Part shown: positions 18,891 to 54,471 of the stretch, piece after piece | How positions within the stretch are numbered: the first letter of the stretch is position 1 | How the letters are laid out: every line of letters begins with the position of its first letter | Assembly: GCF_037042905.1 (NCBI RefSeq) | Contig: NC_087250.1 | Span: 27,344,001-27,408,000 of the forward strand | Source: Lytechinus pictus | Taxonomy: Eukaryota | Length of the DNA stretch: 64,000 bases | Direction: 5' to 3' | Position numbers and translations under genes: made by a program | Notes under the pieces: generated by a model | The model's input: the letters and a program-made list of their open reading frames with translations, nothing else | What the model was told of the DNA's origin: nothing | Database searches by the model: none

Positions 18891-19270
18891 ATATGATGGG
18901 CCGTTCCCGCCAAAACGCATGCCAAAACCATACGCGTGCAAGTCAGAACGTACGCATGGTTCTTTCATAACGTACGCGTGGATCTGTCATAACGTACGTA
19001 TGGTCTTGACAGAACGTACGTATGGACATTTTCTATTATACTTCTATGACATTCTTAACGTACGTATGGTTTTGACATAACGTACGCGTGGTTCTGTCAT
19101 TACGTACGCGTGGTTATGTCATTACGTACGCGTGGTTCCCGGTAAAATAATCAACTCATAGACCAAACCACGCGTACATAATGACAGAACCACGCGTATG
19201 TTATGACAGAACCACGCGTACGTTATGCCATAACCATGCGTGCGTAATGAGAATACCACGCGTACGTAAT
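18891..19270. repeat. Terminal module T (copy 1) with 22-bp CATAACGTACGCGTGGTTCTGT repeats forming a local fold-back
   Basis: Repeats in one orientation to ~19137, inverted ~19162-19270; mirrored at ~53665-54064. Confidence 0.85.
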
Positions 19271-19762
19271 TCAGTACATTTCAGTACAACAGTCATACAA
19301 CCAATGAGAAAGCTTGTTGTATAATTGAACGTATGAAGCTGAATTCGATCCCGCCATTCTTTCAATTGCAACCTGCTGAGCATGCTTTGCAACGGAGATT
19401 CAACGAAGCTGTTAGCAGGATGCCTTCGGATCCGCCCATGATTTTGACACGTGTCCTAGCCGTTTCCTTTCTATGTGCCCTTTTTCTTTTTGTAATAGCT
19501 TATATTCCATTTCTCAGCATAATACCCTTTTCACCTCTCATAAATGCCCATATTTAAAGCTTAAAGTGACACTTTTCCTTTGACAAGTGTCCCTTTCAGT
19601 TATTCGCAACAAGAGCCCCTTCTATTCCTTTGAAATGAGTGCCCCTTTTCCATTCTGATAAGTGTGCCTTTTCATGCTTGTGGAGGGCCCCTTTTCAAGT
19701 ACAAACTACCTTTCCACCTTTGATAATAGTGCCTCATTAGCTCTTATAATTGCCCCTTGTCA

Positions 19763-21127
19763 CAGTGGCGTAGCTACAGGGGGGGGGGGGGGGGCTGGGG
19801 GCACGTGTCCCCCTGAGATTTGGTGTGCCTCCCCCCCCCAGGTGCCCCCCTAAAAAAATTGCCAGAGTAACATAAAAGGGAGAAAAAAGGGAGAAAGAAG
19901 AACAGGAAAAAGAAGGAGAAATACAGAAGAAAAAATAAGAAGAGGAAAATAAAAGGAGGACGAGTGAATAAAATAATGTGAGGGGAAGACTTGCCCCCCA
20001 AAAAAAAATCATGTTACTATATTAAACTTTTGCTTGCGCTTCGCGCCAGAATTATCTGTTCAATGAGATTCATATCTTGCTCATAATAGGCTGATTTGAA
20101 GTTTTGAAGTCAATATACAAAACATATTTTAGCTCGGACATCGAGCTTTCATTTTTTTCATTTTTTATTTTTTTCATTTACAAATTTAAGTGCTCTGTAA
20201 AATGTCCGTTTTATGGTCGACATATCACCATTTTAAGCTCACGCTGCGTGGTCACATTGTTTGATTTGCCAAGTTCCTCTTGTCTACGTGTATTCCATAA
20301 AGTTCAATTAAACAAATGTATTCAGAATGCCCAGATTCTAGGTCTAAAAATAAAACATGCGCGATAGCCTGCATGTTCATTATTTAAAATGTACTTAAAT
20401 TATCCAGTTTCACATCAGAATATCAACAAGTTGTCTGCTCACGCTTCACGATCGCAATATTAATGATACCCAATTAACTATATCCTGTCTATGATTTATA
20501 AAATATGAATAGATTGTCCCGCTTTTAGGTCTAAAATCTCAATTTTCTTCCTTTCGCGCTCGCATCAAATGTTTGGTTACATACCTATCCCATTTATTGA
20601 TACAAAAAGTGCTGAGAATGACAATTTTTTAGGTCGGAATGTCAAAACAAAATTGCTCGCGCTTCGCGCCCCCATTATTGAAATATACCATCTTCGTGGG
20701 TAACTGTAAGCAGTCCTTTAAATAACAGGTCCCTTTTCGATAATGCTAGAACAGTAAATAAAAATGTCTGCTCGCGCTTGGCGTTCGCAGTAATCATCTA
20801 GTTACATACGTATCTTGTTCAGGATCATACATAACATTGCCCAGAATATTAAATTTTCAGCACAAAATACATGAAAGTAAAAAAAAAGTCGCCCGCGCTT
20901 CGCGCTCGCACTTTTTATAAGGCTTATGAGATTAGTTCATGTTTATGTTGTTTTATAAGAATAAAACTAAGAAGTGACTGATCGGGGAAAATATTGGTGA
21001 AGATAATTTCGGGCCCCGTCCCCTATTGGCGAAAGTCGGATCCGCCCTTGTGACACACACCGGAAAAAATGGTGCCCCCCTGAAAAAGCAAGGACCCCCT
21101 AGGAAAAAAATTCTAGCTACGCCACTG
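19763..21127. mobile_element. hAT-like non-autonomous element (mirror copy 51721-53033)
   Basis: 14-bp TIR CAGTGGCGTAGCTA; perfect 8-bp TSD CCTTGTCA. Confidence 0.85.
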
Positions 21128-23810
21128 CCTTGTCATCTCTTGTGATGAGTGCCCCTTTTCACTTCTGATAAGTGACCTATGTTGACCTGTGCCCCTTTCC
21201 CCTTTTCCTCTCTAATTAGTAACCTTATTTCTTCTGATAAATATATTACCTTTTCCTTTATTATGATACAATGTACTTCTAGTCGTGGCCACGCACACGG
21301 AGAGGGACAAACTACATGTAATACTCTGTACACTGCTCTAGGTTTCACTCAAAATGAAATACTGTATTTCTTGGCAGCAAAGCATAGGGAGCTGTAACTC
21401 ATAGCCCCTTCTCAAGTGCAGGCGCGTAGCCAGGGGAGCGGTCGCCCCCAAAAAAAGAAAAAAAAAGGAAAAAGAGAGGAGAAAAGGAAAAGAGAAGGGA
21501 GGAAAGGGAAGAAAGGTAGCTTTGCGGGTTTTTCCTTTTATTCTTTCTTTTCTCAAAAAAGAAACTCCTTCATTCTTGCTCTAAATTTATATATATGAAT
21601 TTTGCTTCCGCGCTGCGCGCAGTTAAATGACAATATTGCAGTTCTCCTTTGTATCCCATTACCCTTTCTCTAACCCTATGTTTCCACCTCAGGTATATGT
21701 GTTTCTTGCCAGTTAAAGTTCAAATGTATACATTAGGGCATGGAATTAGACATGTTTTATAGCTCCATGGAATTAGGGTAAGGTTAGTCCGAAGTATATG
21801 AAGTTATCTTCTTTTTTTTCAAATTGATCGCACAATTTCTGGTCTGGTAAAATCTATATATCAATTTCTGCCGTCACCTCAACATAGGCAACTTCTCCCG
21901 CTTTCCAGCTCATTACTAAACAACTATAATTTGGGGGCAAACAGGCAGGCGCAGATCCAGGATTTCGTAGGGAGGAGGCCCAAATTCGACCTGATTTTGG
22001 CGCCCCTGTGTACTTTTAGGAAAATGGCGGCCCCTCCCCCTCCCTCCCCCCAGGCAATCATAAGTGCATGTTAAATTATTTCATTTCATAGGCACATGAA
22101 GAAGAGGCAATTTGATAATGGTTTCACAATGATGTGTTCATGAATAAATGTAATATCACTTTAAAAAAGAATCAATGCGAGCGCGAAGCGCGAGCGATTT
22201 CTATTTTAACCATTTGATGCTTCCAATCTCGTTTAATTTCTCATCAGAGTAGACCCTGCTAGAATTATGTGAGCGGGAGCCAGGCGCGGATCCAGGATTT
22301 CTTAGGGGGCCCTAATTTCAAGTCAAGTAATAATCGTGCCAAAAATATTGACTCCCATTGCCGAATGGGTAGTGTCTAGTTACTTCACACAGAAACCTCT
22401 CTTGCATTGTATAGGCATACTTCGTTCTTCTGGGTACCCCCATTTTTTCTACGTTTTGTTTCAGGGCTTGAAAAATCTTACGGGGATGACGCCCTGTATC
22501 GCCGCGTATGAACACTGGTTGTGCAATAACTAACTTGCATATTCTGCATGAGAGAAAATTAATGTTTTTTTTTTTTTTTTTTTTTTTTTTTTTGGGGGGG
22601 GGGTAATATATTCTTGAAAAGATATACATGCTCTTTATTATAGAATTGAGGTAGACTCGATCAGTAGTCAGCACTCAGCATTTACTGATTGGGAGTGTTC
22701 TGCCTACTTTAGATCTGTAAGTGTTTGGATATATTATATAATCTTGTGTTATTCGCTAGAAATCCATTCAAAACAGTGAGTTGTCTTGTCAATCCTATTC
22801 AACAAACATTGGATCTTCCGCTCTTGCAACAATCATACCAAGTATCAAAAGGTTATGTATGAAATGTATCTTATAATCTTGCTCAAATTGTATATACTCC
22901 AAATATATTTTCAAAAGAAACAGAATGCGTGTAAACGGTGTAAATAAACAAATACAAGATACTAAAGATAAATATGCTGTAAAAATATACTTTATTGACA
23001 ATGTCTATATAAATATGAAAATAATGATCTTAAGTTCGCATCATTTTGGACGATAGGTTCTTATCTCTCTCTTTCATACAATCATGGGTGTCGATCACGG
23101 GGGGGGGGGGGGATGGGGGGATATATCCCCCCCCCCCCCATATTTCAAGTGGGGGGATGACCTGTATTATCACCCCCCCCCAATAATTCAGGGTAGAAAA
23201 ATTGTAATAATGATGATGAAAAAATGAAAAGTTTGATAATAGTGATTATAGTGATGATTATAGTATGTCATCAATCAGTTTGTTTCCCTCGCAATTTGTG
23301 TATATTGTTATTAAATAAAAATATTCTTTTCCAGGACTTTTAAACAGATGGGTGGAGGTTCAAAATGAAAAAGAATTATATGTTTATGTACCGGTATATG
23401 ATATTTTTTAACACATGACATAAATGGACCCCGACGAAAAAAAACTTTTGTTGATAGGGTGTTCCATCCCACCAGTGGTGAATAAATTAATTTTCAGAAA
23501 TCAGTTAATTCAAAAGGGTGGAAAAATTAACGGGTGGAAAAGGGTGGCAAGATAAACAGGGAAACCTCCATGGACGTAAATCCTAGAGGGGTAGATCTTG
23601 AAAAAGTACAAACAACTTTTCTCAGATTTACCCCTCCCCACATCCAAGTGCATGATGTTTGTCACCATGCATTAAGAAGAAAAGAGATATTGCCAGTGGG
23701 GTTAGATTTAAGAAGTTGTATGCATCATGCTCAATAAACAGATCACTTTGTACATGGTCCAGACAATTTTTGTCATTTTTTCTTTCGTATGAGTTTAGAA
23801 TAGGCTCACT

Positions 23811-24922
23811 CAGTGGGGTAACTACGGGGGGCATGGGGGGCACATGCCCACCCAATCGGCTGACAAAAAAAAACGAGGAAAAGGAGAAAAAGAGGGAGAG
23901 AGGAAGGGAAATGTAATGGGAAAGAAGAAATTATTGTTCATTATGATGTTATATTGTACTATAATTTTGTTATAATTACATAAGACGCATTTTTTTCATA
24001 ACTTTATGAAACATAATTTGCTCAGGGCCCATGCCTTCATTGTTCCTGGTGCTCACATTGTCTGTTTAACTTTAACGAGATATATAATCCTGTGGTACTA
24101 AAACCTCCTGTTTTCAATATACTTCCTCGCACTTCGAATTATTATTTTATGTGCAATAGTATGCTTCTTTTCATGACTACTTAAAGTGATTGCCACATTT
24201 TAAGGTCTTAATATAAAATATTTCTTGTCCGTGCTTATGTTCGCATTAGTGAGATATGTCTGCTCTCCATGAATTCCTAGAATCAGTCCTTAAAATGTCC
24301 CTTTTTCTGATCTCAATATAAAAAAAATTCAGGTCGCGCTTCGCGCTCGCATCTTTTGGTTAATGAAATACGTATGGTCTTAGTGAATTCCTACAAACAA
24401 GCTTTAGAATGCCCCTTTTCATGTCTGAATTTCCTAAATTTTCAACTCGCGCTTCGCGCTCGCAATATTTGATTATTGAGTTGCGTATGTTAATAATCAT
24501 GATTACAATGACTTCAAGTGCTTCATGTGTAATTCTAACAAAATCAGCAAGCGCTTAGCACTCGCATTAGATGACTGTGGTGAGATATGTAGTGGATTCC
24601 TTAAATATAGTCCTTAAAATCTCCCTGTTTGGGGTAAAAAATTTCAGCTCGCGCTTCGCACTCGCATTGATTAGCGAGACAGGTACGTATCATGATTACA
24701 AAAAGTTGATTATAATGTCCCTTTTTACGTCCGAATATCAAAAATTTTAAGCTCGCGCTTCGCGCTCGCATTATTTCATCAGTGAGATACATATCTGTTT
24801 AATATATGGCACTGTCCTTAAAATGTATATTAGGTCAGTATACCTGGCAACTTGCGCGCTCACTAAGTGACTCAAAATTTTTGCTGGTGCCCCCCAATGC
24901 CATGACCCACGGTACGCCACTG
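23811..24922. mobile_element. hAT-like non-autonomous element with internal GCGCGAAGCGC array (mirror 47149-49130)
   Basis: CAGTGGGGTA / TACGCCACTG ends; degenerate 8-bp TSD GGCTCACT / GGCTTAAT. Confidence 0.8.
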
Positions 24923-25638
24923 GGCTTAATACTTGTAACACAAGTTTATTTTTTTTTTAAATTATATAAATACAGTACACTGCAACAATGAAGGAATTTT
25001 CAAGAACACCATGCATATCAACCACTCCCAAATGTCACAACTTGTGATTTTAGTGGGGGTAATATTGAAAGATCCCCATCCACAAGAATATTTGTGTCAA
25101 TCACCCCCCCCCCCCACCAAGAATACCGATCGACACCCTTGCATACAATACACGTAAACCATGAATTCCAAGGTCCCGTGTATCTTGTATATATCAACTA
25201 TTTCAAGATGTAACAATAAATGTAAATGATAGCAATGCAGTTTAGGCCTGAGTAAATCCACGTAATATTTTCAATGGAATTCGTTTTAAAAAATTACAAC
25301 GTGATTTCCCACTGTAGGTTGGAAACGAAAAGGTGTCGTATCATCAACTGTATCTAGCTGTCTTCTACGCGTTACTACTTGAAACAAAAATATAGGAACG
25401 ATATAAACCATAGAGTTATTTCAGTTATTTGAGTATTTGACAATTCGTCAAAAAATTAAAAACGCATCCGAAACTTTCACCATTACAATGAAAGTTTCAT
25501 TTATTCCTTTACATATTGCAAGTAAACTTCAACATTTCTGTAAATAATATATTATTAATATATCCATATACAATTAAGTTCACATGGTGGTATACTGCAC
25601 ATCCTATTTCAGAATATGATATGCGTTGTGGTATATAT

Positions 25639-25803
25639 TGTTATGGAATAGCGCCATCTGTGGCGAGATACCAGAGAGTGTAACAAGATGGAATCCAGTA
25701 AATGGCTGAACCCAAATGTATTATTAGTTTGAAGCCTCCGTTATTTAGGTTGATACTGTAGTGAAGTTGATAGTAGGAGTAGAAGAGACGACAAGACAAA
25801 ACA
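25639..25803 (+). repeat. 5' LTR
   Basis: TGTTATGG...CAAAACA, identical by eye to 31207-31371. Confidence 0.95.
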
Positions 25804-25814
25804 TGGTGTCAGGA
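25804..25814 (+). promoter_or_regulatory. Primer-binding site, probably tRNA-Leu
   Basis: TGGTGTCAGGA directly after the 5' LTR, complementary to the ..UCCUGACACCA 3' end of metazoan tRNA-Leu(CAG). Confidence 0.75.
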
Positions 25815-26206
25815 CAGAGCTTTTATTGGATTCTGTGATGTTGAGTTTGGACAGTTTTTCGTGATCGTCGGAGCAGATCGGAAAACGGAAGGATGCACTT
25901 CCGAAACGGCGAATGTTCACAGAGCATGACCGAGATGAAATTGTAAGTCCAGCTTTTGATGAGACATTTTATGACCTCCCAATATTCCTTAATGATGCTG
26001 GATGATGCTGAATGATGCTGATGATAAAGTAGTAATATCTGATTGGAAACAAGGGACAGAACTGGGTGCTGAAGGACGAGTGACCGGAAATACCAGACAG
26101 TTTTCATCCCATTGACATTGCACAGGAAAAGTGCAGTGAGTGACCGGAATTACCAGCTGTTTTCACTTGATTGTTTCCAGGGTTAGAAAAATTCATCATC
26201 AGTACA

Positions 26207-29200
26207 ATGGAGCAACTGAGGCCTCCCAGACAGATGAACTTTGAAGCAAGTGACCTTTCCTTAGAGTGGAAACAGTGGAAAGATGAGTTTGTGCTCTACG
26301 TGGATTTGAGCATGGATGGTAAAGAGGACAAGGTGAAGCTCAAGATGTTGAAGTACCTTGTTGGTCCACAGGGAAGGGAGCTCTACGAGACGATAAAACC
26401 TGAAGGGACAAGATTACCGAATGGATCCGTGCAAGACGTCACTATGGCCCAGGCTCTGGATGCTTTTGAGAAGCATTGTCAACCAGTAAGGAATGAGACC
26501 GTGGACAGGTATCGGTTCTTTACTCGAAGTCAAGGTAGTGGAGAATCATTTGATTCGTTCTTAACTGAACTCAAACTGTTGGCGGCTCACTGTAACTTCG
26601 GAGATTTAAAGGAGTCTCTGATTCGTGATCGGATCGTATGCGGGATCAAAGATGGCATGCTCAGGGAGAGACTTTTACGAGAATCTTCACTTGATTTGGA
26701 CAAGTGTGTCAAAGCTTGTCAAGCATCTGTGCTCTCTAAGGCCAGATTAGATGTTCTTGTCGGTGAGCAGCAACAATTGGTTCATGCAGTGAGCAATAAA
26801 GAAAAACCCAAGAACTTGCAGGCAGTGCAGTGTAAATTCTGTGGACGTTGTCATGAAAGGAAAAAAGAGAAATGTCCAGCCTTCGGGAAAGAATGCTTTG
26901 CATGCAATGGAAAAAATCATTTCTCTAGTGTATGCAGGAGCAAAGCCAAGAAAGATGGTAAGGATCAGAAGAGAGATCCAAAGAAACCAAAGAAAAGACC
27001 AGTCCATGTAGTGGAAGCAGGCAGTTCAGATGAAGAATTCCAGGAAGTTCAGACAGTGGAACTGGAAGGAGAGCATGCTGTGTACGGGATAGACGGGGGA
27101 AAGTTCAAAAAGAAAATTTTTGTGCTGATGACACTAAGTGGGAAAGATGTGAAGTTCCAGGTAGACTGCGGAGCAACATGTAATGTGATCCCTAAGGCGC
27201 TGGCAAAAGAAGTCATCAAGAGCAAGGACCTTGTACTTACTGTCTTTAATCAGACAACTGAAGTTCCTCTTGGCAAGACCAAAGTGAAAATGATGAATCC
27301 CAAGAATGGAAGGAAATACAAAGTGGACTGCATCGTTGTAGACAGAGAGTGCATGCCAATACTTGGGAGCAGTGCAGCCCAGCAGATGGGATTGATCAAG
27401 GTCTGTGAGGAAAACATAATGTTGCTGAAGGCTGACACAGATTGTGAGAGTACTCTAAGCAAGCAGACCCTGATGACTGAATATGCTGATGTGTTTGAAG
27501 GGACAGGAAAACTTGAGGGAGAGTATCATATGAGTGTGGACGAAGACGTTACACCGGTGATCCACCCACCAAGACGAGTACCAGTGGCTTTGCAGACCAA
27601 ACTAAAGGAAGAATTAGACAGGCTTGAAGAAGGCAATATAATTGCAAGGATAGAGACGCACACCCCTTGGGTCTCAAGCCTTGTCTGTGTGGAGAAGCCT
27701 AATGGGAAGCTGAGAGTATGCTTAGACCCAAGAGATCTGAATAAGGGATTGAAACGAAGCCACTATCCCATGACAACAATAGAAGACATCCTATCAGACT
27801 TGACTAATGCGAAGGTGTTTAGCACCTTTGATGCGAAGAACGGATTCTGGCATGTCCAATTAGACGAGTCCAGCTCGGAGCTGACAACATTCAACACTCC
27901 CTATGGCCGGTATCGTTGGAAGCGTATGCCTTTTGGTCTGTCCACCGCTCCTGAAGAGTTCCAAAGACGCCTGAACTTGGTGCTGGAAGGTCTTGAAGGT
28001 GTCAGATGTGTGGCGGATGACATACTGGTGTTCGGTAAAGGGGAGTCAGAAGAGGAATCAATAAGAGACCATGACAAGAAGGTTAGAGCCTTGATGAACA
28101 GATGTCGGGAAAGAAATGTAAAGCTTAACATAGAGAAAGCTAAGCTTAAAGTGAAGGAAGTATCATACATAGGACACACAATCTCTGCTGAAGGACTGAA
28201 ACCGGATCCTAAGAAGGTGGAAGCAGTCTTGAAGATGCCTAACCCTACGGACGTAGCGGGAGTCCAAAGATTTATTGGATTTGTGAACTACCTGAGCAAG
28301 TTTCTGCCTGGACTTAGCGACCTTTGTGAGCCACTTCGCAAGCTGACGCAGAAGGACGTAACTTGGTGGTGGGCAGAGGTGCATGACAGGGCAGTGACAG
28401 AAATAAAGAAGCTGGTGACTGCAGAGCCAGTACTCCAGTATTATGACCCATCCAAGGAATTGACGCTGCAAGCTGATGCTTCAGACACTGGATTAGGTGC
28501 AGCATTGATGCAAGAAGGACGTCCAGTGGCGTTTGCCAGTAGAGCCCTAACTGATACAGAGACAAGGTATGCACAAATTGAAAAAGAACTATTAGCAGTA
28601 GTCTTTGGTTTGCAAAGATTTCATGTGTATACCTATGGAAGACCAGTAAGTGTGCAATCAGACCACAAACCACTTGAGATCATCACTACAAAACCACTCC
28701 ATCTAGCACCAAAGAGATTGCAGAGGATGTTAGTGAGAATGCACACTTATGATGTGGTAATCAGATACAAGCCAGGAAAAGAGATGTACTTGGCAGATAC
28801 CCTAAGCAGAGCCTATCTTCAGAGTGGCAAGACTGATGAAATGAGGGAGCTAGAGACTGTCAACTTAGCAATGCACATCCCAGTTTCACAGCCTTTGCTT
28901 ACTGAGATCAGAGAAGCAACTAAGAGGGATGAGACTATGCAGAGACTACAAGAGATTATCAAGCAAGGTTGGCCCAATGACAAGAAGGATGTGGAGCTAG
29001 ACTTAGTCTCATATTTCCATGTTAGAGACGAGCTGAGTACAGAGAATGACCTCATATTCAGAGGAGAGAGATTGGTCATTCCAAAAGCCATGAGACGAGA
29101 GATGACGTTACAGATTCATGATTCCCACATTGGTGTAAATGGATGCCTGAGAAGAGCAAGGGAATGCATGTATTGGCCAGGCATGAGTAGCCAATTGAAA

Positions 29201-30190
29201 GACTTTGTGCAGAATTGTGAGACGTGCCAAGAATATGGTAAAGAACAACCCAAGGAAACACTAAAACCCCATGATGTGCCAGAGAGACCCTGGGCAAAGG
29301 TTGGTGCAGACCTATTTCAGCTGGATGGACGCCACTACTTAATTACTGTGGATTACTTCTCAGGCTATTGGGAAGTCGACTATCTGGAGAAGACACTGGC
29401 CACCAATGTTATTAGTAAACTCAAGGGCCAGTTTGCACGATTCGGGATTCCGGATCAACTTGTCACAGACAATGGACCACAGTTTACTGCAGACGAGTTC
29501 AAGAGGTTTGCAAGGAAGTGGCAGTTTGAACATACAACATCGTCTCCCCATTACCCTCAAAGCAATGGGAAGGCGGAAAGCAGTGTGAAAGTTGCAAAAT
29601 CTCTGCTGAAGAAGGCTAAGACAGCAGGAAGTGATCCATACCTCAGCCTTCTGGCATTTCGTAACACACCAACACCTGGTATGGGAAGCAGTCCGATACA
29701 GAGAATAATGAACAGGAGAACTAGGACTGTGCTACCAACTACCAAGAGGCTGCTCAAACCTGAGATACAAAAGAAGGTTGGAGAGGAGATGAGAGCAGCC
29801 AAGGAGAGGCAAGCATGTTACTACAACCGAGGAGCCAGAGATCTGACACCCCTGAAAATAGGTGACCATGTTCGTCTGAAATCAGCAGGGGGTCCAAAAA
29901 AGTCCTGGATGAGAGCAGTAGTGGTAAGCTTTGCTGCAGAACCTAGATCCTACAATGTCCTTACCCAAGATGGCGTTACTTATCGACGAAATCGACGCCA
30001 TCTCAGAAAAGTTAGCAAAACAACTGATAATGCTAACAATGAACTAGACGACCTGGTGATTTCTCAACCCGAGCGAGAGATTCAGCCTGTGGCCCCCCCA
30101 CAGGACCCTAACGAACATCAGGCCCAGACGACTAGATCAGGAAGGCGTATTCAACGACCTCGTTATCTGGACGATTATGTGACCAGATAG
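26207..30190 (+). CDS. Gag-Pol polyprotein (1327 aa from first ATG): Gag-CCHC, PR, RT, RNase H, IN
   Basis: CFACNGKNHFSSVC knuckle; VDCGATCN; RMPFGL, VADDILV; DAS..YAQIEKE..DHKPL; HDSH..CETC, VDYFS, TDNGPQF, NGKAE; no stops. Confidence 0.97.
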   Translation: MEQLRPPRQMNFEASDLSLEWKQWKDEFVLYVDLSMDGKEDKVKLKMLKYLVGPQGRELYETIKPEGTRLPNGSVQDVTMAQALDAFEKHCQPVRNETVDRYRFFTRSQGSGESFDSFLTELKLLAAHCNFGDLKESLIRDRIVCGIKDGMLRERLLRESSLDLDKCVKACQASVLSKARLDVLVGEQQQLVHAVSNKEKPKNLQAVQCKFCGRCHERKKEKCPAFGKECFACNGKNHFSSVCRSKAKKDGKDQKRDPKKPKKRPVHVVEAGSSDEEFQEVQTVELEGEHAVYGIDGGKFKKKIFVLMTLSGKDVKFQVDCGATCNVIPKALAKEVIKSKDLVLTVFNQTTEVPLGKTKVKMMNPKNGRKYKVDCIVVDRECMPILGSSAAQQMGLIKVCEENIMLLKADTDCESTLSKQTLMTEYADVFEGTGKLEGEYHMSVDEDVTPVIHPPRRVPVALQTKLKEELDRLEEGNIIARIETHTPWVSSLVCVEKPNGKLRVCLDPRDLNKGLKRSHYPMTTIEDILSDLTNAKVFSTFDAKNGFWHVQLDESSSELTTFNTPYGRYRWKRMPFGLSTAPEEFQRRLNLVLEGLEGVRCVADDILVFGKGESEEESIRDHDKKVRALMNRCRERNVKLNIEKAKLKVKEVSYIGHTISAEGLKPDPKKVEAVLKMPNPTDVAGVQRFIGFVNYLSKFLPGLSDLCEPLRKLTQKDVTWWWAEVHDRAVTEIKKLVTAEPVLQYYDPSKELTLQADASDTGLGAALMQEGRPVAFASRALTDTETRYAQIEKELLAVVFGLQRFHVYTYGRPVSVQSDHKPLEIITTKPLHLAPKRLQRMLVRMHTYDVVIRYKPGKEMYLADTLSRAYLQSGKTDEMRELETVNLAMHIPVSQPLLTEIREATKRDETMQRLQEIIKQGWPNDKKDVELDLVSYFHVRDELSTENDLIFRGERLVIPKAMRREMTLQIHDSHIGVNGCLRRARECMYWPGMSSQLKDFVQNCETCQEYGKEQPKETLKPHDVPERPWAKVGADLFQLDGRHYLITVDYFSGYWEVDYLEKTLATNVISKLKGQFARFGIPDQLVTDNGPQFTADEFKRFARKWQFEHTTSSPHYPQSNGKAESSVKVAKSLLKKAKTAGSDPYLSLLAFRNTPTPGMGSSPIQRIMNRRTRTVLPTTKRLLKPEIQKKVGEEMRAAKERQACYYNRGARDLTPLKIGDHVRLKSAGGPKKSWMRAVVVSFAAEPRSYNVLTQDGVTYRRNRRHLRKVSKTTDNANNELDDLVISQPEREIQPVAPPQDPNEHQAQTTRSGRRIQRPRYLDDYVTR

Positions 30191-31197
30191 AACTTATAAA
30201 TTCCGGACATAGCTAATAGAGTGGGAAACAACCAAAAGTTCTAAAGTTTGAAATGTCCACCCAAGTGTGGAAATACTTTTATTTGTATTATTTTTTAATT
30301 TGACGCAAATTTTGGCATGACAGGTTAAAAAAAAAAAAAAAAGAAAGCAGAAAGAAAAATAGATTGGCTACTCTGAAAGTATTTGATCTATCATATTTTG
30401 CAGGTTTTCATAATACATGTGTTACTATGAGGTAGATTGAGATAGTTGATATAACCATTATGTAGACAAAGACAACTTTCACAGCACATTTACAGAGATG
30501 CTGATGAGATATACACTATTTGACCAAATTTGTTATTTCCAGAATTTTTTTTTTCCAACTCATGTCGGATTCACAAATGCTGCCCTTGGATTATTCATAC
30601 AGTAGGACAACATCTTGTACAAAAAAAATAAAAAAAAAATAAAAGTGCAGCAATTTTGACGATTTTTGAGGCAACCTGTGATTAGTTTTGTTCTCTTTCA
30701 TTTCACTGAGGAAAGGATGATGTACTTAATTAGTTACATGAGTGAAGTGACCAAGCAGTTTGTTTATTGATATGTATTGATGACATGTTATATATGTTCA
30801 GTAGAGTTAGTTTTTAATTGTTATGTTTTAGAAAAGAGTTAGTATTGTTTGGGTAGCCAATCTAAAGCCTTTGAACAAACATACACAAAACAAACGACAA
30901 AAGAAAGTAATAAATCGGATATATCTTTAATAGAATTTTTGGTGGTCGCCCGGATGATTTCCCAATCACATCATAGATGTTTCGGAATCGACTGGAATAA
31001 CACAGGAGTTTGATATAAAATGAAAGCATAATCCGTTCAAGTATGGGACTGTCGCAGATATACAAGACGAATGGAAGGATCAAAGAACTGTGATGAACTT
31101 TTATAAACTGTGACTTCCTGAAGTGATTTGGATTTGGATGGACTCCGTTTAGAAGAAGGACTCTGTTTAAACAATGGACTAATTAAATTTTGTAAAC

Positions 31198-31206
31198 AAA
31201 GGGGGA
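31198..31206 (+). promoter_or_regulatory. Polypurine tract
   Basis: AAAGGGGGA abutting the 3' LTR. Confidence 0.85.
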
Positions 31207-38509: not shown

Positions 38510-38545
<36 letters not shown>

Positions 38546-42500: not shown

Positions 42501-45500
42501 TAGGGGGCGCCAAATTGAGACTCGGGCTAGGGGTGGGGGGCGAAATAATATTCGAACTAGGGGCGCTAAATTGTTGTTCGAAGGGATGTTAAAATGATGT
42601 TCGAACTGGGGGCGCCAAATTGATACTCGAACTGGGGGGGGGGGCGAATCGATGTTCGAGCTAGGGGGGCGCCAAATTGATACTCGAGCTAGGGGGGGGG
42701 GCGAAATGATATTCGAACTAGGGAAGGCAAATTGAGTTCGAAGGGATGCCAAAATGATGTTCGAACTGGGGGCCGAATTGATGTTCGAACGGGGGGGGGG
42801 GGGGGTGTGCGAAATGATGATCGACCTACATGTAGGGGTGCCGAATTGATACTCGAACTAGGGGGGGGGGCGTCGAATTGATGTTCGAACTAGGGGCACC
42901 ACATTGATGTTTGAACTATAGGGGGCGCCGAATTGATATTCGAACTAGGGGCGCCAATTTGATGTTCCAACTGGGGGCGCCAAATTGATGTTCGACCTAT
43001 GGAGGCCAAATAGATGTTCGACTACGGGGGGGGGGGCATGGGGGCACGTGCATGAATTCCTAGAATCAGTCCTTAAAATGTCCCTTTTTCTAATTTGAAT
43101 ATCAAAAATCTTCAGCTCGCGCTTCGCGCTCGCATCATTTGGTTAGTGAACTACGTATGGTCTTCATGAATTCCTACAAACAAGCCTTAAAATGCCCCTC
43201 TTCAGGTCTGAATTTTCTAAATTTTCAGCTTGCGCTTTGCGCTCGCAAGATTTGATTGGTGAGATGGGTATATGTTAATCATGATTACAAGTGCTATATG
43301 TGCATGTTTAGATGTAATTCTAACAAATCAGCAAGCGCTTATTGGCACTCGCGTTAGATGACTATGGTGAGATGTGTATACTCTTAATGAATTCCTAAAA
43401 TATAGTCCTTAAAATCTTCCTGTTTGGGGGTCAATATTTACAAAAATTTCAGCTCGCGCTTCGCGCTCGCATTATTTAGCGAGACAGGTACGCATCATGA
43501 TTACAAAAGATTAATTATAATGTCCCCTTTTAGGTCTGAATATCAAAAATTTAAGCTCGCGCTTCGCGTTCGCATTATTTGACCAGTGAGAGACATATCC
43601 GCCTAATGGCACTGTCCTTAAAATGTCTCTATTAGGTCAGTATACCTGGCAACTGGGCGCGCTTCGCGCGCTTACTAAGTGACTCAAGATTTTTGCTGGT
43701 GCCCCCCAATGCCGTGACCCACGGTACGCCACTGCATCGATTGATAATTTGATGTCTCATTGAGAAGTTAGAATATAGTGAATCCCCAGAAAAAAACGAA
43801 ACCGTAATTCGGTGAAAGTTTTTGCTGCCATAATCATAATTTTTCTTCATCTGATATATAAATCAAAATATATCAATGGTCATAAAACACGCATGACTGA
43901 GTTAGAACAATGGAAATGGTGTTACCAAATTTTCGTTTGCTCGTGCAATTTTACGATTTTTCTGGCTTTTACTGCTATCCATTCAATCAAAGTTCATAAC
44001 TGAAACATCCATTTCTTCTTTTTTTTCATAATTATGAGACCCTCTTCGTAAAATATGAATGACGCACGGTCGAGAAAAAGTTGCATGAAACATATTTGAT
44101 TCCCTACCTATTCGATGAATCGTTGGAAAAGAAACATTCCACGGCAAAAAATGTTCAGTTATGCCAAATTGAATATTTTTTTCATTTGAATTATGGCTCA
44201 AAGCTCATGACCAGTTGACCACCATAGTCATGAATGTATTTCGACCTTAGTGATGTCAGTATGTTATACATTGAACCCTAGGCTATGAGGATAATTGACT
44301 GACGGCTATTTTGTTATTTGGGGGCTAGATCTATTTATTTAGTTCATGTGGGGAGCTAAAAAATCGGCCTTAGAGCTGAATTCCAGTGTATTTCATACTC
44401 TGCTTTGGGGCCTTCTCATACAATAGTTGCCATAGACTCTATGATATTTGACATTTACCAAAAAAGAAAGACTGGCAAATTTTGTGCGCAAGTCAACATT
44501 TCGTGTGTCACTCTGTGGATTTTGCTTGCCAACCAAATATCAACCCCCCCCCCCAAAAAAAAAAAGAGCCGTTATTCGCCAACAAGGTCAAAACATTTCT
44601 ATTGATGTATAATTAACATTTCCATTACATACATAATAAAAACATGCATAAAAACATTTTAGACTTAATGATTTCACAGAGTCAAGTAATCTATTTCTAT
44701 AACGGCTTTTGGGGTCATTTTCCAAACGATATTGGATTCGACGTTTTCTTTGTACACTGCAAAATCATCACTGCCGCGGTCCTGTAGAAACTGATGAACC
44801 GGAAGAAAGTTAACTTCATTAATTTTGTACTTTGCATGTGAACCAGTTATTGAGGGAACTCTCAATTGGTCTAGGTAAAATACTGTTAAATGAGAAGTCC
44901 CCAAAGAAAACGGCCAGTCACCGACTGGTGCATATTTCTTTCACAAGCAAACTAAAAATTACTATCCCTACGGGGGGGGGGGGTCAAGTTGATCTAAAAC
45001 ACTAAAGAAAAATGCTTAGCACGCCGTATCAACCGCAGGTAATGTTATTTTTAAGTTAGGCCCCCACAATCCCAAATCAACTAAATTAGATCTACTTCAA
45101 GTAGGTTTCCAAAAGTTTCAAAACTCCATAAATTCTACATATTATTTCACATACAACTAAATCTACATACAAGCTAAATACATAAACACAATAACGCCAA
45201 ATAAATTCAAATTACTTAATTCATATATTGATGTAAAAATAAATATTTACATTTAGCGCATGTTTCCAATTCAAAACACTTTATAAGTATATACACTACA
45301 TGATATAAAACATCTCAATGTTACTTATACCATCGAACTTGTCACATACACGGTGTATCTGCTAGTTTATATAATACGACGTACATTTGTTATATTGTAT
45401 TTTTTTAAATTGAATACATCTAATGTGGGAGATTAGCTTTAATCTTACACACGCTTTGGAATATCTTATTCTAGTTTTTAATTTCGATGTTCATTCTCCC

Positions 45501-47712
45501 AACATTTTCTAAGTTCATTGACCCAGGCGGCCAGGCCTGCAATGACCCTAAATTACCTTTGACCTTGGTCATGTTACCTTAAACAAACGTAGTCAGGATA
45601 TTCCGCTATACTTTATTACCCTTGTTTCCAAGTTTCATGAACTATGACATTTCACAAACTTAACTTTGGTTAAGATTTCAGTGTTGACGCCGTCCCCATC
45701 GTCAAAAAGAGGCGCCAATTATTGTCTCGCTCTGCTATGTAGGCGAGACAAAAATATGTTCTGTCCTATAGCGACTTTTGTAACATGTTTTAGTAGGGGG
45801 CACGTAGGCAATTCGTCAATATTTTAATGAGTAATTCGTGAGCTTCACGAGCTGAGCACTCCATAACTCTATTCCTAACAAAAGCCGCTCTTGTTTATTA
45901 AAGGCTAAGAAACAAAATATGAATAAGAGTTGTGAATTCTTCTTGCATGAAGGGAAGCACTCTGCACTTTGACAAATGTATGAGAAGCGTCTGATTTTAA
46001 CTGTTGTTTTTATATTGCTTGCAACACTTAAGCCACTAATCCCAAACGGATTGGAAAATATAATGTTAACAAGTGGAATATAATATTATATATAGGTCCT
46101 ATGTTTCAATTGGACGGTGAATGGAGTACACGGCCAACAATTATATAACTTTAGCAGTACTGAGAGTATTATTCTTTGATCTGAGCAGATTGAATAACCG
46201 ATTTTCTTTGACATTTCTGTTAATTTCAAATTACATTTTATACTGACACTGTTTACATTTTGTACCGATACTCTTGATATTTATCAGAACAAATGAGGAT
46301 TTCTATTCTTAGGTGAATGTTCTCTTGTTATTTCTGTATTGGAAAGCGCTTTGAGTAAAAATCGGTCTAGTAGTATAGTCACTAGTTACTAGTAAACGTT
46401 TTGCATGTTCTAGGTGGGTAGACATTCATACCACAACGCATATCATATTCTGAAATAGGATGTGCAGTATACCAACATGTGAACTTAATTATATATGGAT
46501 ATATTAATAATATATTATTTACAGAAATGTTGAAGTTTACTTGCAATATATAAAGGAATAAATGAAAATTTCATTGTAATGGTGAAAGTTTCGGATGCGT
46601 TTTTAATTTTTTTGACGAATCGTCAAATACTCAAATAACTGAAATAACTCTATGGTTTATATCGTTCCTATATTTTTGTTTCAAGTAGTAATGCGTAAAA
46701 GACAGCTAGATACAGTTGATGATACGACACCTTTTCGTTTCCAACCTACAGTGGGAAATCACGTTGTAATTTTTTAAAACGAATTCCATTGAAAATATTA
46801 CGTGGATTTACTCAGGCCTAAACTGCATTGCTATCATTTACATGTATTGTTACATCTTGAAATAGTTGATATATACAAGATACACGGGACCTTGGAATTC
46901 ATGTTTCACGTGTATTGTATGCAAGGGTGTCGATCGGTATTCTTGGTTGGGGGGGGGGGGGGGCGAGTGATTGACACAAATATTCTTGTGGATGGGGATC
47001 TTTCAATATTACCCCCACTAAAATCACAAGTTGTGACATTTGGGAGTGGTTGATATGCATGGTGTTCTTGGAAATTCCTTCATTGTTGCAGTGTACTGTA
47101 TTTATATAATTAAAAAAAAAATTAAATTTGTGTTACAAGTATTAAGCCCAGTGGCGTACCGTGGGTCATGGCATTGGGGGGCACCAGCAAAAATTTTGAG
47201 TCACTTAGTGAGCGCGCAAGTTGCCAGGTATACTGACCTAATATACATTTTAAGGACAGTGCCATATATTAAACAGATATGTATCTCACTGATGAAATAA
47301 TGCGAGCGCGAAGCGCGAGCTTAAAATTTTTGATATTCGGACGTAAAAAGGGACATTATAATCAACTTTTTGTAATCATGATACGTACCTGTCTCGCTAA
47401 ACAATGCGAGCGCGAAGCGCGAGCTGAATTTTTTTTACCCCAAACAGGGAGATTTTAAGGACTATATTTAAGGAATCCACTACATATCTCACCACAGTCA
47501 TCTAATGCGAGTGCTAAGCGCTTGCTGATTTTGTTAGAATTACACATGAAGCACTTGAAGTCATTGTAATCATGATTATTAACATACGCAACTCAATAAT
47601 CAAATATTGCGAGCGCGAAGCGCGAGTTGAAAATTTAGGAAATTCAGACATGAAAAGGGGCATTCTAAAGCTTGTTTGTAGGAATTCACTAAGACCATAC
47701 GTATTTCATTAA

Positions 47713-48576
47713 AGACCCAGACCGGACTAAAAAAAGAAATTGACAAATTATATACCAATCGAAAGCTTATAAGCTACTAAATACAGCAATGTATGCTTTA
47801 TGCATTTTCACAGCTTCCCAGCTGAGTATTTGCTTAAGAATATTCCAATTATCGGGCTTCGAACCCGGCTTAGAAAATGTGCTTTATTGTGCTTTTCACC
47901 TGCCTCGAGACCGTGACGTCACGTTGTGTAAGAAGCGTCGTGATTCCATAGGTTTGTACACAGAAAAACTGGGTGATTTCTTTGCTTTCCAGATAACGCA
48001 TTTCATTCTCTTTACTTCTATCACAGAGGGATATCACATATATTTTTTCCCACTAGCTTGAATTTATGAAATCTACAGTTTTTATCTAGTTTTTGCCATA
48101 TTTTATTTCCTGCTTATTTGGCGCAGATTTCAATTCTATCTGCATTTAAATTATGTATAACAACTTTTCCTGACATAGCACTTTAGGCCCAATAAGAACC
48201 AAACAAAGAAATCACAAAAAAGGTAGTGAATAGTTGTAGGTTTACATCAATTTGAACAGTGAGTAATTTTAAGTGCCATTTTCATCTGGAAACGAAAAGA
48301 AAATGGATTCATAACATGGAAATGGAAGAAAATACCCAATGCTTTTGTACACAAGCCTATGGAATCACGACCCTCCAGACACAACGTGACGTCATCATTT
48401 CCAGGCGACGTGGGGGTGCTAAATCGAAGCGTACTTTGGAGGAGAAGTTTCTTAAATTTTTATTCAATATTTTTAAGAAATGGAAGGAAATATTTGTAAT
48501 ATTTTTGGTATATTTGTATTCTATGAATAATTGCCTTTCTTTTGATATATGATTGTTTTTACACCGGTCATGGTCT
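47713..48576. mobile_element. Kolobok-type MITE (family D), right-arm specific
   Basis: TTAA TSD (47709-47712, 48577-48580); TIR AGACC(CA/AT)GACCGG; empty site with a single TTAA at 24360-24363. Confidence 0.85.
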
Positions 48577-51500
48577 TTAACCAAAAGATGCGAGCGCGAA
48601 GCGCGACCTGAAAATGTTTTATATTGAGATCAGAAAAAGGGATATTTTAAGGACTGATTCTAGGAATTCATGGAGAGCAGACATATCTCACTAATGCGAA
48701 CATAAGCACGGACAAGAAATATTTTATATTAAGACCTTAAAATGTGGCAATCACTTTAAGTAGTCATGAAAAGAAGCATACTATTGCACATAAAATAATA
48801 ATTCGAAGTGCGAGGAAGTATAGTGAAAACAGGAGGTTTTAGTACCACAGGATTATATATCTCGTTAAAGTTAAACAGACAATGTGAGCACCAGGAACAA
48901 TGAAGGCATGGGCCCTGAACAAATTATGTTTCATAAAGTTATGAAAAAAAATGCGTCTTATGTAATTATAACAGAATTATAGTACAATATAACATCATAA
49001 TGAACAATAATTTCTTCTTTCCCATTACATTTCCCTTCCTCTCTCCCTCTTTTTCTCCTTTTCCTCGTTTTTTTTTGTCAGCCGATTGGGTGGGCATGTG
49101 CCCCCCATGCCCCCCGTAGTTACCCCACTGAGTGAGCCTATTCTAAACTCATACGAAATAAAAAATTACAAAAATTGTCTGGACCATGTACAAAGTGATC
49201 TGTTTATTGAGCATGATGCATACAACTTCCCTCTTAAATCTAACCCCACTGGCAATATCTCTTTTCTTCGTTAATGCATGGTGACAAACATCATGCACTT
49301 GGATGTGGGGAGGGGTAAATCTGAGAAAAGTTGTTTGTACTTTTTCAAGATCTACCCTCTAGGATTTACGTCCATGGAGGTTTCCCTGTTTATCTTGCCA
49401 CCCTTTTCCACCCGTTTATTTTCCACCCTTTTGAATTAATTGATTTCTTAAAATTAATTTATTCACCACTGGTGGGATGGAACACCCTATCAACAAAAGT
49501 TTTTTTTTCGTCGGGGTCCATTTATGTCATGTGTTAAAAAATATCATACACCGGTACATAAACATATCATTCTTTTTCATTTTGAACCTCCACCTATCTG
49601 TTTAAAAGTCCTGGAAAAGAATGTTTTTATTTAATATCAATATACACAAATTGCGAGGGAAACAAACTGATTGATGACATACTATAATCATCACTATAAT
49701 CACCATTATCAAACTTTTCATATTTTCATCATCATTATTACAATTTTTCTACCCTGAATTATTGGGGGGGGGGGGATGATAATACAGGTCATCCCCCACT
49801 TGAAATATTGGGGGGATATATCCCCCCATCCCCCCGTGATCGATACCCATGATTGTATGAAAGAGATAGATAAGAACCTATCGTCCAAAATGATGCGAAC
49901 TTAAGAGCATCATATTTATATAGACATTGCCAATAAAGTATATTTTTTACAGCATATTTATCTTTAGTATCTTGTATTTGTTTATTTACACCGTTTACAC
50001 GCATTCTGTTTCTTTTGAAAATATATTTGGAGTATATACAATTTGAGCAAGATTATAAGATACATTTCATACATAACCTTTTGATACTTGATATGATTGT
50101 TGCAAGAGCGGAAGATCCAATGTTTGTTGAATAGGATTGACAAGACAACTCACTGTTTTGAATGGATTTCAAGCGAATAACACAAGATTATATAATATAT
50201 CCAAACACTTACAGATCTAAAGTAGGCAGTGCACTCCCAATCAGTAAATGCTGAGTGCTGACTACTGATCTCATGCAGAATATGCAAGTTAGTTATTGCA
50301 CAACCAGTGTTCATACGCGGCGATACAGGGGCGTCATCCCCGTAAGATTGTTCAAGCCCTATAACAAAACGTAGAAAAGAAAAAAATGGGGGTACCCAGA
50401 AGAACGAAGTATGCCTATACAATGCAAGATAGGTTTCTGTGTGAAGTAACTAGACATTACCCATTCGGCAATGGGAGTCAATATTTTTGGCACGATTATT
50501 ACTTGACTTGAAATTAGGGCCCCCTAAGAAATCCTGGATCCGCGCCTGGCTCCCGCTCACATAATTCTAGCAGGGTCTATTCTGATGAGAAAATAAACGA
50601 GATTGGAAGCATCAAATGGTTAAAATAGAAATCGCTCGCGCTTCGCGCTCGCATTGATTCTTTTTAAAAGTGATATTACATTTATTCATGAACACATCAT
50701 TATGAAACCATTATTAAATTCCCTCTTCTTCATGTGCCTATGAAATAAAATAGTTTAACATGCATTTAAGGCACTTATGATTGCCTGGGGGGAGGGAGGG
50801 GAAGGGGCCGCCATTTTTCCGAAAAGTACACAGGGGCGCCAAAATCAGGTCGAATTTGGGCCCCCCCCCCCCCCTCCCTACGAAATCCTGGATCCGCGCC
50901 TGCCTGTTTGCCCCCAAATTATAGTTGTTTAGTAATGAGCTGAAAAGCGGGAGAAGTTGCCTATGTTGAGGTGACGACAGAAATTGATATATAGATTTTA
51001 CCAGACCAGAAGTTGTGCGATCAATTTGAAAAAAGAAGAAGATAACTTCATATAATTCGGACTAACCTTACCCTAATTCCATGGAGCTATAAAACATGTC
51101 TAATTCCATGCCCTAATGTATACATTTGAACTTTAACTGGCAAGAAAAACATATACCTGAGGTGGAAACATAGGGTTAGAGAAAGGGTAATGGGATACAA
51201 AGGAGAACTGCAATATTATATTTAACTGCGCGCAGCGCGGAAGCAAAATTCATATATATAAATTTAGAGCAAGAATGAAGGAGTTTTTTTTTGAGAAAAA
51301 AAAGAATAAAAGGAAAAACCCGCAAAGCTACGTTTCTTCCCTTTCCTCCCTTCTCTTTCCCTTTTCTCCTCTCTTTTTCCCTTTTTTTTCTTTTTTGGGG
51401 GGCGACCGCTCCCCCTGGCTACGCGCCTGCACTTGAGAAGGGGCTATGAGTTACAGCTCCCTATGCTTTGCTGCCAAGAAATACAGTATTTCATTTTGAG

Positions 51501-53061
51501 TGAAACCTAGAGCAGTGTGCAGAGTATTACATGTAGTTTGTCCCTCTCCGTGTGCGTGGCCACGACTAGAAGTACATTGTATCATAATAAAGGAAAAGGT
51601 AATATATTTATCAGAAGAAATAAGGTTACTAATTAGAGAGGAAAAGGGGAAAGGGGCACAGGTCAACATAGGTCACTTATCAGAAGTGAAAAGGGGCACT
51701 CATCACAAGAGATGACAAGGCAGTGGCGTAGCTAGAATTTTTTTCCTGGGGGGCACTGGGGGTCCTTGCTTTTTCAGGGGGGCACCATTTTTTCCGGTGT
51801 GTGTCACAAGGGCGGGTCCGACTTTCGCCAATAGGGGACGGGGCCCGAAATTATCTTCACCAATATTTTCCCCGATCAGTCACTTCTTAGTTTTATTCTT
51901 ATAAAACAACATAAACATGAAATAATCTCATAAGCCTTTACTTTCATGTATTTTGTGCTGAAAATTTAATATTCTGGGCAATGTTATGTATGATCCTGAA
52001 CAAGATACGTATGTAACTAGATGATTACTGCGAACGCCAAGCGCGAGCAGACATTTGTATTTACTGTTCTAGCATTATCGAAAAGGGACCTGTTATTTAA
52101 AGGACTGCTTACAGTTACCCACGAAGACGGTATATATTTCAATAATGGGAGCGCGAAGCGCGAGCAATTTTGTTGTGACATTCCGACCTAAAAAATGGTC
52201 ATTCTCAGCACTTTTTGTATCAATAAATGGGATAGGTATGTAACCAAACAATTGATGCGAGCGCGAAAGGAAGAAAATTGAGATTTTAGACCTAAAGCGG
52301 GACAATCTATTCATATTTTATAAATCATAGACAGGATATAGTTAATTGGGTATCATTAGTATTGCGATCGTGAAGCGTGAGCAGACAACTTGTTGATATT
52401 CTGATGTGAAACTGGATAATTTAAGTACATTTTAAATAAAGAACATGCAGGCTATGGCGCATGTTTTAGTTTTAGACCTAGAATCTGGGCATTCTGAATA
52501 CATTTGTTTAATTGAACTATATGGAATACACGTAGACAATAGGAACTTGGCAAACCAAACAATGTGACCACGCAGCGTGAGCTTAAAATGGTGATATGTC
52601 GACCATAAAACGGACATTTTACAGAGCACTTAAATTTGTAAATGAAAAAAATGAAAAATGAAAAAAATGAAAGCTCGATGTCCGAGCTAAAATATGTTTT
52701 GTATATTGACTTCAAAACTCGCTCCATATCAGCCTATTGAGCAAGATATGAATCTCATTGAACAGATAATTCTGGCGCGAAGCGCAAGCAAAAATTTAAT
52801 ATAGTAACATGATTTTTTTTGGCAAGTCTTCCCCTCATATTATTTTATTCACTCGTCCTCCTCTTATTTTCCTCTTCTTATTTTCTCTTCTGTCTTTCTC
52901 CTTTTTCCTGTTCTTCTTTCTCCCTTTTTTCTCCCTTTTTTGTTGCTCTGCCAATTTTTTTTAGGGGGGCACCTGGGGGGGCACACCAAATCTCAGGGCC
53001 CCCCCCCCCCCCCCCCCTGTAGCTACGCCACTGTGACAAGGGGCAATTATAAGAGCTAATG

Positions 53062-53256
53062 AGGCACTATTATCAAAGGTGGAAAGGTAGTTTGTACTTG
53101 AAAAGGGGCCCTCCCCAAGCATGAAAAGGCACTATTATCAAAGGTGGAAAGGTAGTTTGTACTTGAAAAGGGGCCCTCCCCAAGCATGAAAAGGCACTAT
53201 TATCAAAGGTGGAAAGGTAGTTTGTACTTGAAAAGGGGCCCTCCCCAAGCATGAAA
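53062..53256. repeat. 65-bp unit x3, single copy in left arm (~19667-19734)
   Basis: AGGCACTATTATCAAAGG starts at 53062, 53127, 53192. Confidence 0.9.
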
Positions 53257-54471
53257 AGGCACACTTATCAGAATGGAAAAGGGGCACTCATTTCAAAGGA
53301 ATAGAAGGGGCTCTTGATGCGAATAACTGAAAGGGACACTTGTCAAAGGAAAAGTGTCACTTTAAGCTTTAAATATGGGCATTTATGAGAGTTGAAAAGG
53401 GTATCATGCTGAGAAATGGAATATAAGCTATTACAAAAAGAAAAAGGGCACATAGAAAGGAAACGGCTAGGACACGTGTCAAAATCATGGGCGTATCCGA
53501 AGGCATCCTGCTAACAGCTTCGTTGAATCCCCGTTGCAAACGAGCAAGCATGCTCAGCAGGTTGCAATTGAAAGAATGGCGGGATCGAATTCAGCTTCAT
53601 ACGTTCAATTATACAACAAGCTTTCTCATTGGTTGTATGACTGTTGTACTAAAATGTACTGAATTACGTACGCGTGGTATTCTCATTACGCACGCATGGT
53701 TATGGCATAACGTACGCGTGGTTCTGTCATAACATACGCGTTGTTTTGGCTTAACGTACGCGTGGTTCTGTCATTACGTACGCGTGGTTTGGTCTATGAG
53801 TTGATTATTTTACCGGGAACCACGCGTACGTAATGACATAACCACGCGTACGTAATGACAGAACCACGCGTACGTTATGTCAAAACCATACGTACGTTAA
53901 GAATGTCATAGAAGTATAATAGAAAATGTCCATACGTACGTTCTGTCAAGACCATACGTACGTTATGACAGATCCACGCGTACGTTATGAAAGAACCATG
54001 CGTACGTTCTGGCTTGCACACGTATGGTTTTAGCATGCGTTTTGGCGGGAACGGCCCACCATATAATAAGCATGCACAATGGTATGGAAGGCCGATAGTG
54101 CCAAAAACGTGAACTACCATACCGTCATACGTATGCTCAAAAAAGAGTACGTGTTCTTTGTTAAGAGCACGTGTTCTCCGTTAAGAGTACGTGTGCTCTA
54201 ATGGACCAATCAGCGAGCTCGATTTGGGTTTTATGCACGCGTATGCTTTTACCATACGTCAGCTGGTAGCATACGTATGAGCTGAGAACGCGTATGCTAA
54301 TATCTCACGTCAGCTAAAAGCATACGTATGCTCAGTCCATTCTGATATTCGTTCTTATCACTTTGACCAATCACATGGAGCCTTTCATTGAAGTTTGGAA
54401 GCGCGATTGCTAGTGCGCAATGTATGTATGATAATGCATATATGCACATACTACTTAATAGCGATCTATTA

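Follow-up and report, generated by a model that had tools for sequence, protein, structure and literature searches.

The subject of this analysis is a palindrome of about 35 kb within a 64,000-nucleotide stretch of Lytechinus pictus DNA (NCBI RefSeq assembly GCF_037042905.1, contig NC_087250.1, positions 27,344,001 to 27,408,000 of the forward strand; hereafter the window, with positions counted from its first letter). A first-pass annotation had described segments 18891-39052 and 39345-54064 as reverse complements across a spacer of about 290 bp. An inverted-repeat search and self-BLAST returned co-linear inverted matches running from an outermost pair at 18890/54065 to an innermost pair at 39048/39371, and the arm pairing, read by eye on the printed centre sequence, extended to 39052/39345, reproducing the centre coordinates of the earlier description. 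The similarity of the two arms is far above chance level. The arms belong to two copies, L and R, of a transposon family with terminal inverted repeats (TIRs); in this analysis the family was labelled F and its 248-bp terminal unit was labelled A. We consider it highly probable that two sister copies of a non-coding TIR transposon of ~14.7 kb, placed head to head, make up the palindrome, R most likely having transposed into the subterminal repeats of L. The features on which this reading is built are as follows.

18892..39056, plus strand: L, the older F copy, running from alpha end to beta end, with the last ~270 bp, including the beta terminus, absent
18892..19138, plus strand: terminal repeat A of L (alpha terminus, starting TATGATGGGCC...), with 22-bp subrepeats
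19166-19270: array of the 22-bp repeat in opposite orientation, after the alpha A of L
39051..39056: left copy of the target-site duplication of R, TAATAA
39057..54063, minus strand: R, a complete F copy of 15,007 bp, inverted relative to L, with both termini canonical
39057..39345, plus strand: beta terminus of R, comprising A (to 39303) and the start of a 22-bp array (39112-39472)
53817..54063, minus strand: A at the alpha terminus of R, with 99.2% identity to the A of the beta end
54064..54069: right copy of the target-site duplication of R, TAATAA
54070..54082, plus strand: 13-bp remnant of the beta subterminal region of L

Unit A is composed of ~50 unique bases followed by 22-bp tandem repeats. 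The central segment 39056-39303 is both a direct copy of the outer 248 bp of L (18891-19138, 98.4% identity) and an inverted copy of the outer 248 bp of R (99.2% identity), and every A is adjoined by arrays of the same 22-mer in both orientations. The 812-Mb genome contained 65 matches to A, and a 24-nt pattern taken from its first bases occurred 19 times, compared with 0 occurrences of a reversed-pattern control. The F copies on C8 (10.9 kb), C3 (23 kb) and C2 possess both ends of R (~3.2 kb from 54063 inward and ~2.3 kb from 39057 inward), and the interior between these common ends differs among them. The F element underlying L and R measures ~14.7 kb, a single F copy has 248-bp TIRs on a ~5.5-kb core, and mini-copies of 292 bp and 459 bp are also present. 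The F terminus begins TATGGTGGGCCGTTCCCGCCAAAA, and 21 of the 22 termini inspected start with TATGG, the exception being a GATGG variant in copy C4a. Flanks were compared by eye for eight distinct F end pairs: a perfect 6-bp duplication was found in five (C8a CCCCCG, C3a CACTGA, C19a TGATCA, C8b GGAGTA and R TAATAA), the C21a pair matched at 5 of 6 bases, and no duplication was found at the C2a and C4a pairs. F can be described as a low-copy, non-coding family whose elements have 5'-TA..TA-3' ends, TIRs of 248 bp and subterminal arrays of a 22-bp repeat, and make 6-bp target duplications. The same 292-bp mini-element with the same flanks is present at C21:8656054 and C21:7532580, 1.1 Mb apart and in opposite orientation, which suggests that a segmental duplication, and not a pair of insertions, is the cause.

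The position of R was read from its two junctions. Position by position, its beta end can be aligned with the ends of C8a and C19a, and the alignment takes in a unique break in the 22-bp array. On the left side of R, the sequence as far as the target hexamer corresponds to the reverse complement of the beta end of R itself. On the right side, past TAATAA, 11 of 13 bases (54070-54082) continue the same subterminal sequence (canonical hexamer TATTAA), the calculated chance of at least 11 matches in 13 being ~1e-5; after this 13-bp remnant a different element begins at 54083. Judged from the sequence of these junctions, R sits inside L in opposite orientation, ~290 bp from the expected terminus of L. 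Because R interrupts L so near to the terminus of L, and does so inverted, nearly the entire length of both copies pairs. The spacer of the first-pass annotation is not neutral DNA: it is the beta terminus of R.

The same junctions bear on two other origins of the palindrome. Fold-back repair classically yields long palindromes with short spacers, and the locus is damaged elsewhere, the end of L and the adjoining element Z2 (described below) both being truncated, as might be expected if fold-back priming after a break, or template switching, had made an inverted duplication in situ without transposition. However, a fold-back copy would overrun the terminus into the flank, whereas both arms end exactly at family termini and the flanks are unrelated; nor would it give a complete central terminus or a matching 6-bp duplication 15 kb apart, and we regard this origin as very improbable. 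The first-pass annotation had also offered a giant fold-back element. In such a case L and R together would be one transposon with 14.5-kb TIRs that moved here as a unit. The outer ends do form a valid inverted pair of family termini, but the outer hexamers differ (GACGTA and TAATAA), a complete terminus lies in the centre, at 39057, accompanied by a duplication of its own, and no second locus with the L/R-specific junctions appeared among the matches scored. An FB-type foldback is a single mobile unit that is delimited by its own duplicated target site and made up mostly of long TIRs, and the 35-kb unit is not so delimited; that it arrived as a unit is extremely improbable, and this part of the earlier reading is not supported in the form in which it was worded. 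Two tandem copies with the interior flipped by TIR-TIR recombination were also considered and were dropped given the target duplication of R and the interruption of L.

The relationship between the two copies was assessed by comparing them with other members of the family. In the alpha segment the substitution distance between L and R is 1.78%, compared with 2.8-4.5% to C2a, C8a and C3a, and in the beta segment it is 2.35%, compared with 3.1-5.4% between L or R and other copies. Both copies also contain the same nested element.

21946..37046: nested hAT-like non-coding element in L, with CAGGCGCGGATCC-type TIRs and an 8-bp duplication, holding a long terminal repeat (LTR) retrotransposon
41382..50902: counterpart of this nested element in R, 9,521 bp, its 8-bp duplication reading TCTGTTTG at one edge and CCTGTTTG at the opposite edge

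For each of the probes over the two F/hAT-like junctions 40 matches were scored, and the only full-length ones were those at L and R, which is a lower-bound statement because the genome search scores the best candidates only, and the empty site for the nested element was seen in C8a and C2a. By these distances, no other F copy among those compared is as close to L or to R as the two are to each other. Since their distance is the lowest and the nested element is common to both, the source of R would have been L or a twin of L that has since been lost. The family of the nested hAT-like element is itself very abundant (~2,000 first-look candidates); it contains purine-rich low-complexity DNA, 26-bp tandem arrays and, in its interior, an inverted repeat of ~1 kb as well as one more copy of its end sequence, at 50548 in R and 22281 in L.

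To compare the arms over their whole length, L without its LTR retrotransposon (14,431 nt) was aligned to the reverse complement of R (14,724 nt), and 13,252 of 13,522 aligned bases were identical. The 270 substitutions (146 transitions and 124 transversions) correspond to 2.0%, in agreement with the ~2% that had been estimated from a 480-bp sample, and the alignment contains 84 gaps with 2,111 gap columns. The left arm exceeds the right in length only through the 5,734-bp insertion at 25639-31372. Each arm carries a private insertion.

25639..31372, plus strand: Gypsy-type LTR retrotransposon in L, 5,734 bp, with TG..CA ends and a TATAT duplication
47713..48573: TTAA-flanked TIR element in R, 861 bp, with the empty site in L

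The 166-bp LTRs of the retrotransposon are 100% identical and its 1,339-aa protease-reverse transcriptase-RNaseH-integrase frame (26171-30190) is open; it is apparently very young. In addition, a 65-bp tandem repeat is enlarged in R at 53062-53270 by two additional copies, and 513 bp of L (34755-35267) have no counterpart in R. The identical-LTR retrotransposon, the TTAA element and the 84 indels indicate that the arms evolved independently after the duplication. The private indels and transposable element insertions noted earlier were thus recovered, and of the readings offered in the first-pass annotation the one that agrees with these data is an inverted duplication of sufficient age for each arm to have gathered insertions and indels of its own. 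Its remark that the arms hold no recognisable gene stands in that none of the 40 non-low-complexity open reading frames (ORFs) of R of at least 70 aa had a Pfam match and no Rfam match was found in 18000-57000; the one exception is the pol of the retrotransposon in L, beyond which the arms are non-coding.

In the mechanism that we propose, R would have inserted, inverted, into the subterminal repeats of L. We infer that L itself, present for instance on the sister chromatid or on the homologous chromosome, served as donor, and the family would have been mobilised in trans by an integrase-like transposase of the IS3EU/GingerRoot type binding the 22-bp subterminal repeats. Several points weigh against this reconstruction. 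The choice of L as donor comes from sisterhood alone, and a lost third copy would look identical. L is not intact: just 13 bp of it follow R, and a more complex rearrangement may have taken place. No integrase-like DDE transposase (rve/DDE) was found in any F, Z or related-end copy examined by an ORF scan, which would miss spliced genes. In a comparison of 38300-40100, no contig listed from four public runs bridges 39056/39057, one of them carrying the flank of the C8 copy. Finally, the 2% divergence and the private insertions also fit alleles of a highly polymorphic genome, so that the case against a mis-join is carried by the junction logic alone.

The last two points would also fit an assembly artefact in which two haplotypes, or a chimeric fold-back read, had been joined head to head, the haplotype mis-join having been one of the readings offered in the first-pass annotation. 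Alleles, however, would have common flanks, whereas the sequences next to the alpha ends of L and R differ. The homology stops exactly at transposon termini on both outer sides, the join falls exactly at one of them, and TAATAA links 39051-39056 to its partner at 54064-69, 15 kb away, with F subterminal sequence on both sides of R. Moreover, the window contains no Ns, and a chimeric read would yield identical arms. We therefore judge an artefact highly improbable; a haplotype mis-join is very probably not the origin of the palindrome, which is most likely an ordinary transposon nest and not an assembly error.

The superfamily was approached through the structure of the ends. In the excerpted text of PMC10045372 and PMC6839031, IS3EU/GingerRoot elements are characterised by 5'-TA..TA-3' termini and 6-bp target duplications. 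F, as well as Z, the second family at the locus, has TA...TA termini and 6-bp duplications, and both likely belong to IS3EU/GingerRoot on these structural grounds. TIRs of at least 100 bp and many non-autonomous copies are further points of likeness to the elements described in those excerpts. The F and Z TIRs (189-248 bp) are longer than the 100-150 bp given there for GingerRoot, and F differs from the descriptions in its 22-bp subterminal arrays in both orientations and, together with Z and a third family with related ends, in that no DDE transposase was found. The Pfam ORF scans covered the F copies C8a, C3a and C19a, two Z copies and Z1, third-family elements (three of 4.8-5.9 kb with TATGGGCGGCC ends, plus two larger) and twelve single-terminus loci. 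They returned only LINE, retroelement or unrelated host-type domains, along with a sub-threshold zf-C17orf113 (E = 4.8e-4) in C19a; as seen here, F and Z appear to be non-autonomous in the copies examined. A third family with TATGGGCGGCCATAAGGGCCAAAA ends (4.3-5.9 kb, without long ORFs) recurs about every 80 kb over ~1 Mb at C17:11790934-12753752, a spacing that suggests a large tandem segmental duplication carrying it.

Both outer flanks of the palindrome were found to be copies of family Z, a sister to F. Z copies are 7-33 kb long, with ~190-bp TIRs and a 184-bp tandem array near the left end; the 6-bp target duplication is perfect in 4 of 5 end pairs (flanks by eye), and all 18 termini inspected start with TATGG. 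The Z terminus, TATGGAAGGCCGATAGTGCCAAAA..., is near-identical to that of F over the first ~27 bp, and a shared enzyme, or two closely related ones, probably mobilises both families. The copies at the locus, Z1 and Z2, are arranged as follows.

1..4317, plus strand: body of Z1, co-linear with Z positions ~2,830-7,126 of a 7,748-bp reference copy from C11
4318..18510: nested retroelement block interrupting Z1 (LINE-like reverse transcriptase and endonuclease ORFs), with no Z homology
18511..18891, plus strand: right part of Z1, stopping in the right TIR of Z at hexamer GACGTA
54083..56531, plus strand: Z2, with a precise Z left terminus at 54083 and the first ~2.44 kb of Z only, ending at Z position ~2,443

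The left terminus of Z1 lies 2,589 bp before the window (C6:27341411), and its other end falls roughly 155-180 bp short of the terminus of Z, depending on the alignment, where it is adjoined by the alpha end of L. In the retroelement block, Pfam identified RVT_1 in the ORFs at 13379-15859 (plus strand) and 16098-18284 (minus strand), and Exo_endo_phos in 12314-12967. Neither the last ~270 bp of L, nor the outer TIR of Z1, nor the rest of Z2 is present in the 20 kb past the window, and no further F terminus was found on this chromosome region. We infer that Z2 landed in the end of L, 13 bp from R, and that a single later deletion, from inside Z2 to past the end of Z1, would have taken the last ~270 bp of L and most of Z2; this is the simplest reading of the damage and the weakest part of the reconstruction.

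These truncations could also be accounted for by an aberrant transposition using the ends of two neighbouring related elements (sister-chromatid or reversed-ends), which would give an inverted copy and truncations in one event. The near-identity of the F and Z termini would allow one enzyme to pair them, the alpha end of R and the left end of Z2 face each other 19 bp apart, and the end of L, the TIR end of Z1 and most of Z2 are missing. Inverted duplications and deletions made in this way in maize and rice are described in parts of PMC3239180. Such an event is unneeded for R, whose two canonical ends and perfect duplication are explained by standard insertion without extra assumptions, and Z2 is nearer to copies on other chromosomes (95-97% identity) than to Z1 (94%); as the origin of the palindrome we hold it to be very improbable.

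Nesting of these families is not confined to the palindrome. F or Z sequence lies within 150 bp outside 8 of 40 F or Z termini, although these eight come from three loci and the events are not all independent; with their near-identical TA..TA ends, F and Z nest repeatedly in each other's termini. Both L and the C2 copy (C2:63348600-63348625) adjoin a Z TIR at the same hexamer, TACGTC/GACGTA, reflecting either a preferred site or an old Z+F composite that was propagated. In a third F/Z nest, at C9:23445101-23458600, the interior of the F alpha segment flanks a Z terminus, and at C9:23455244-23457634 the 22-bp/66-bp subrepeats of F are enlarged to a satellite-like array of ~2.4 kb. No target duplication was found at a 295-bp hybrid mini-element with one Z end and one F end (C2:63314042-63314336).

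A known counterpart of this arrangement is the maize double-Ds structure, in which a Ds element is inserted in opposite orientation in a copy of itself; structures of this type break chromosomes or transpose aberrantly in the presence of transposase. At the present locus too, one complete copy, flanked by its target duplication, is embedded in inverted orientation in another member of its family. The portion of PMC3239180 concerned with them describes inverted Ds pairs in close linkage and transposition between sister chromatids. Like double-Ds and inverted Ac/Ds pairs, L and R are non-autonomous cut-and-paste elements, one inverted in or beside its own copy, which places extra opposed ends close together. 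In contrast to double-Ds, the insertion lies ~290 bp from the end of the host copy, so 14.5-kb arms pair; the element has a 6-bp duplication and TA..TA ends and is not a hAT, the host is an animal, and the structure is known from sequence alone. The locus is an animal, IS3EU-like counterpart of the self-nested inverted element.

Head-to-head tandems of transposable elements and nested insertions in opposite orientation were reported in Drosophila by McGurk and Barbash (2018, PMC5932611). As far as the excerpts of that paper go, those are likewise inverted dimers of one family arising by repeated insertion, with both junctions identifiable; they were derived from short-read junctions of P, hobo and LTR elements a few kb long, whereas here 35 kb with 2% divergence is fully resolved. 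The foldback elements covered in the available portion of PMC4079207 (Drosophila FB, Galileo, Tetris and sea urchin elements) are also non-coding, with tandem subrepeats in their ends, and L and R together resemble a giant foldback. The long arms here come from two elements and not from elongation of TIRs, and there is nothing unusual about one F copy by itself. Mu killer and Ac killer 1 (Ack1), in the passages of PMC13635294 that treat them, are similar in being inverted transposon duplications produced by the transposon's own activity, and in the potential for hairpin RNA if transcribed. They differ in having been shown to silence an active autonomous element via small RNAs, whereas the L and R arms are without transposase sequence and are known from DNA only.

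With R read as an insertion into L, the 35-kb palindrome resolves into a series of ordinary events, the assembly here is probably correct, and the locus provides a clean animal example of a transposon inserting in its own sister copy. The structure is probably without host function. It is predicted to make the locus fragile, to offer neighbouring ends between which aberrant transposition could occur, and to yield hairpin RNA in the event of read-through. Having survived to 2% divergence despite a spacer of ~290 bp, it is also a data point on the tolerance of long palindromes in the animal germ line. The preference for nesting, if real, suggests a simple route from ordinary TIR elements to giant fold-back elements. 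On a more speculative view, which we think rather unlikely, self-nesting would be the mechanism by which giant palindromic transposons are born, with L and R as a nascent giant fold-back before its first jump and a possible source of hairpin RNA against the family. If that were true, elements of this IS3EU-like group would be drawn to the terminal repeats of related copies, and insertion in inverted orientation, at a distance of a few hundred bp from the end of a sister, would create valid outer termini and 14.5-kb 'TIRs' at once.

Apart from F and Z, a small inverted-repeat element of ~610 bp, unrelated to either family, is present on both sides of the palindrome, at 9707-10318 and 62638-63246, its two copies being 84% identical.

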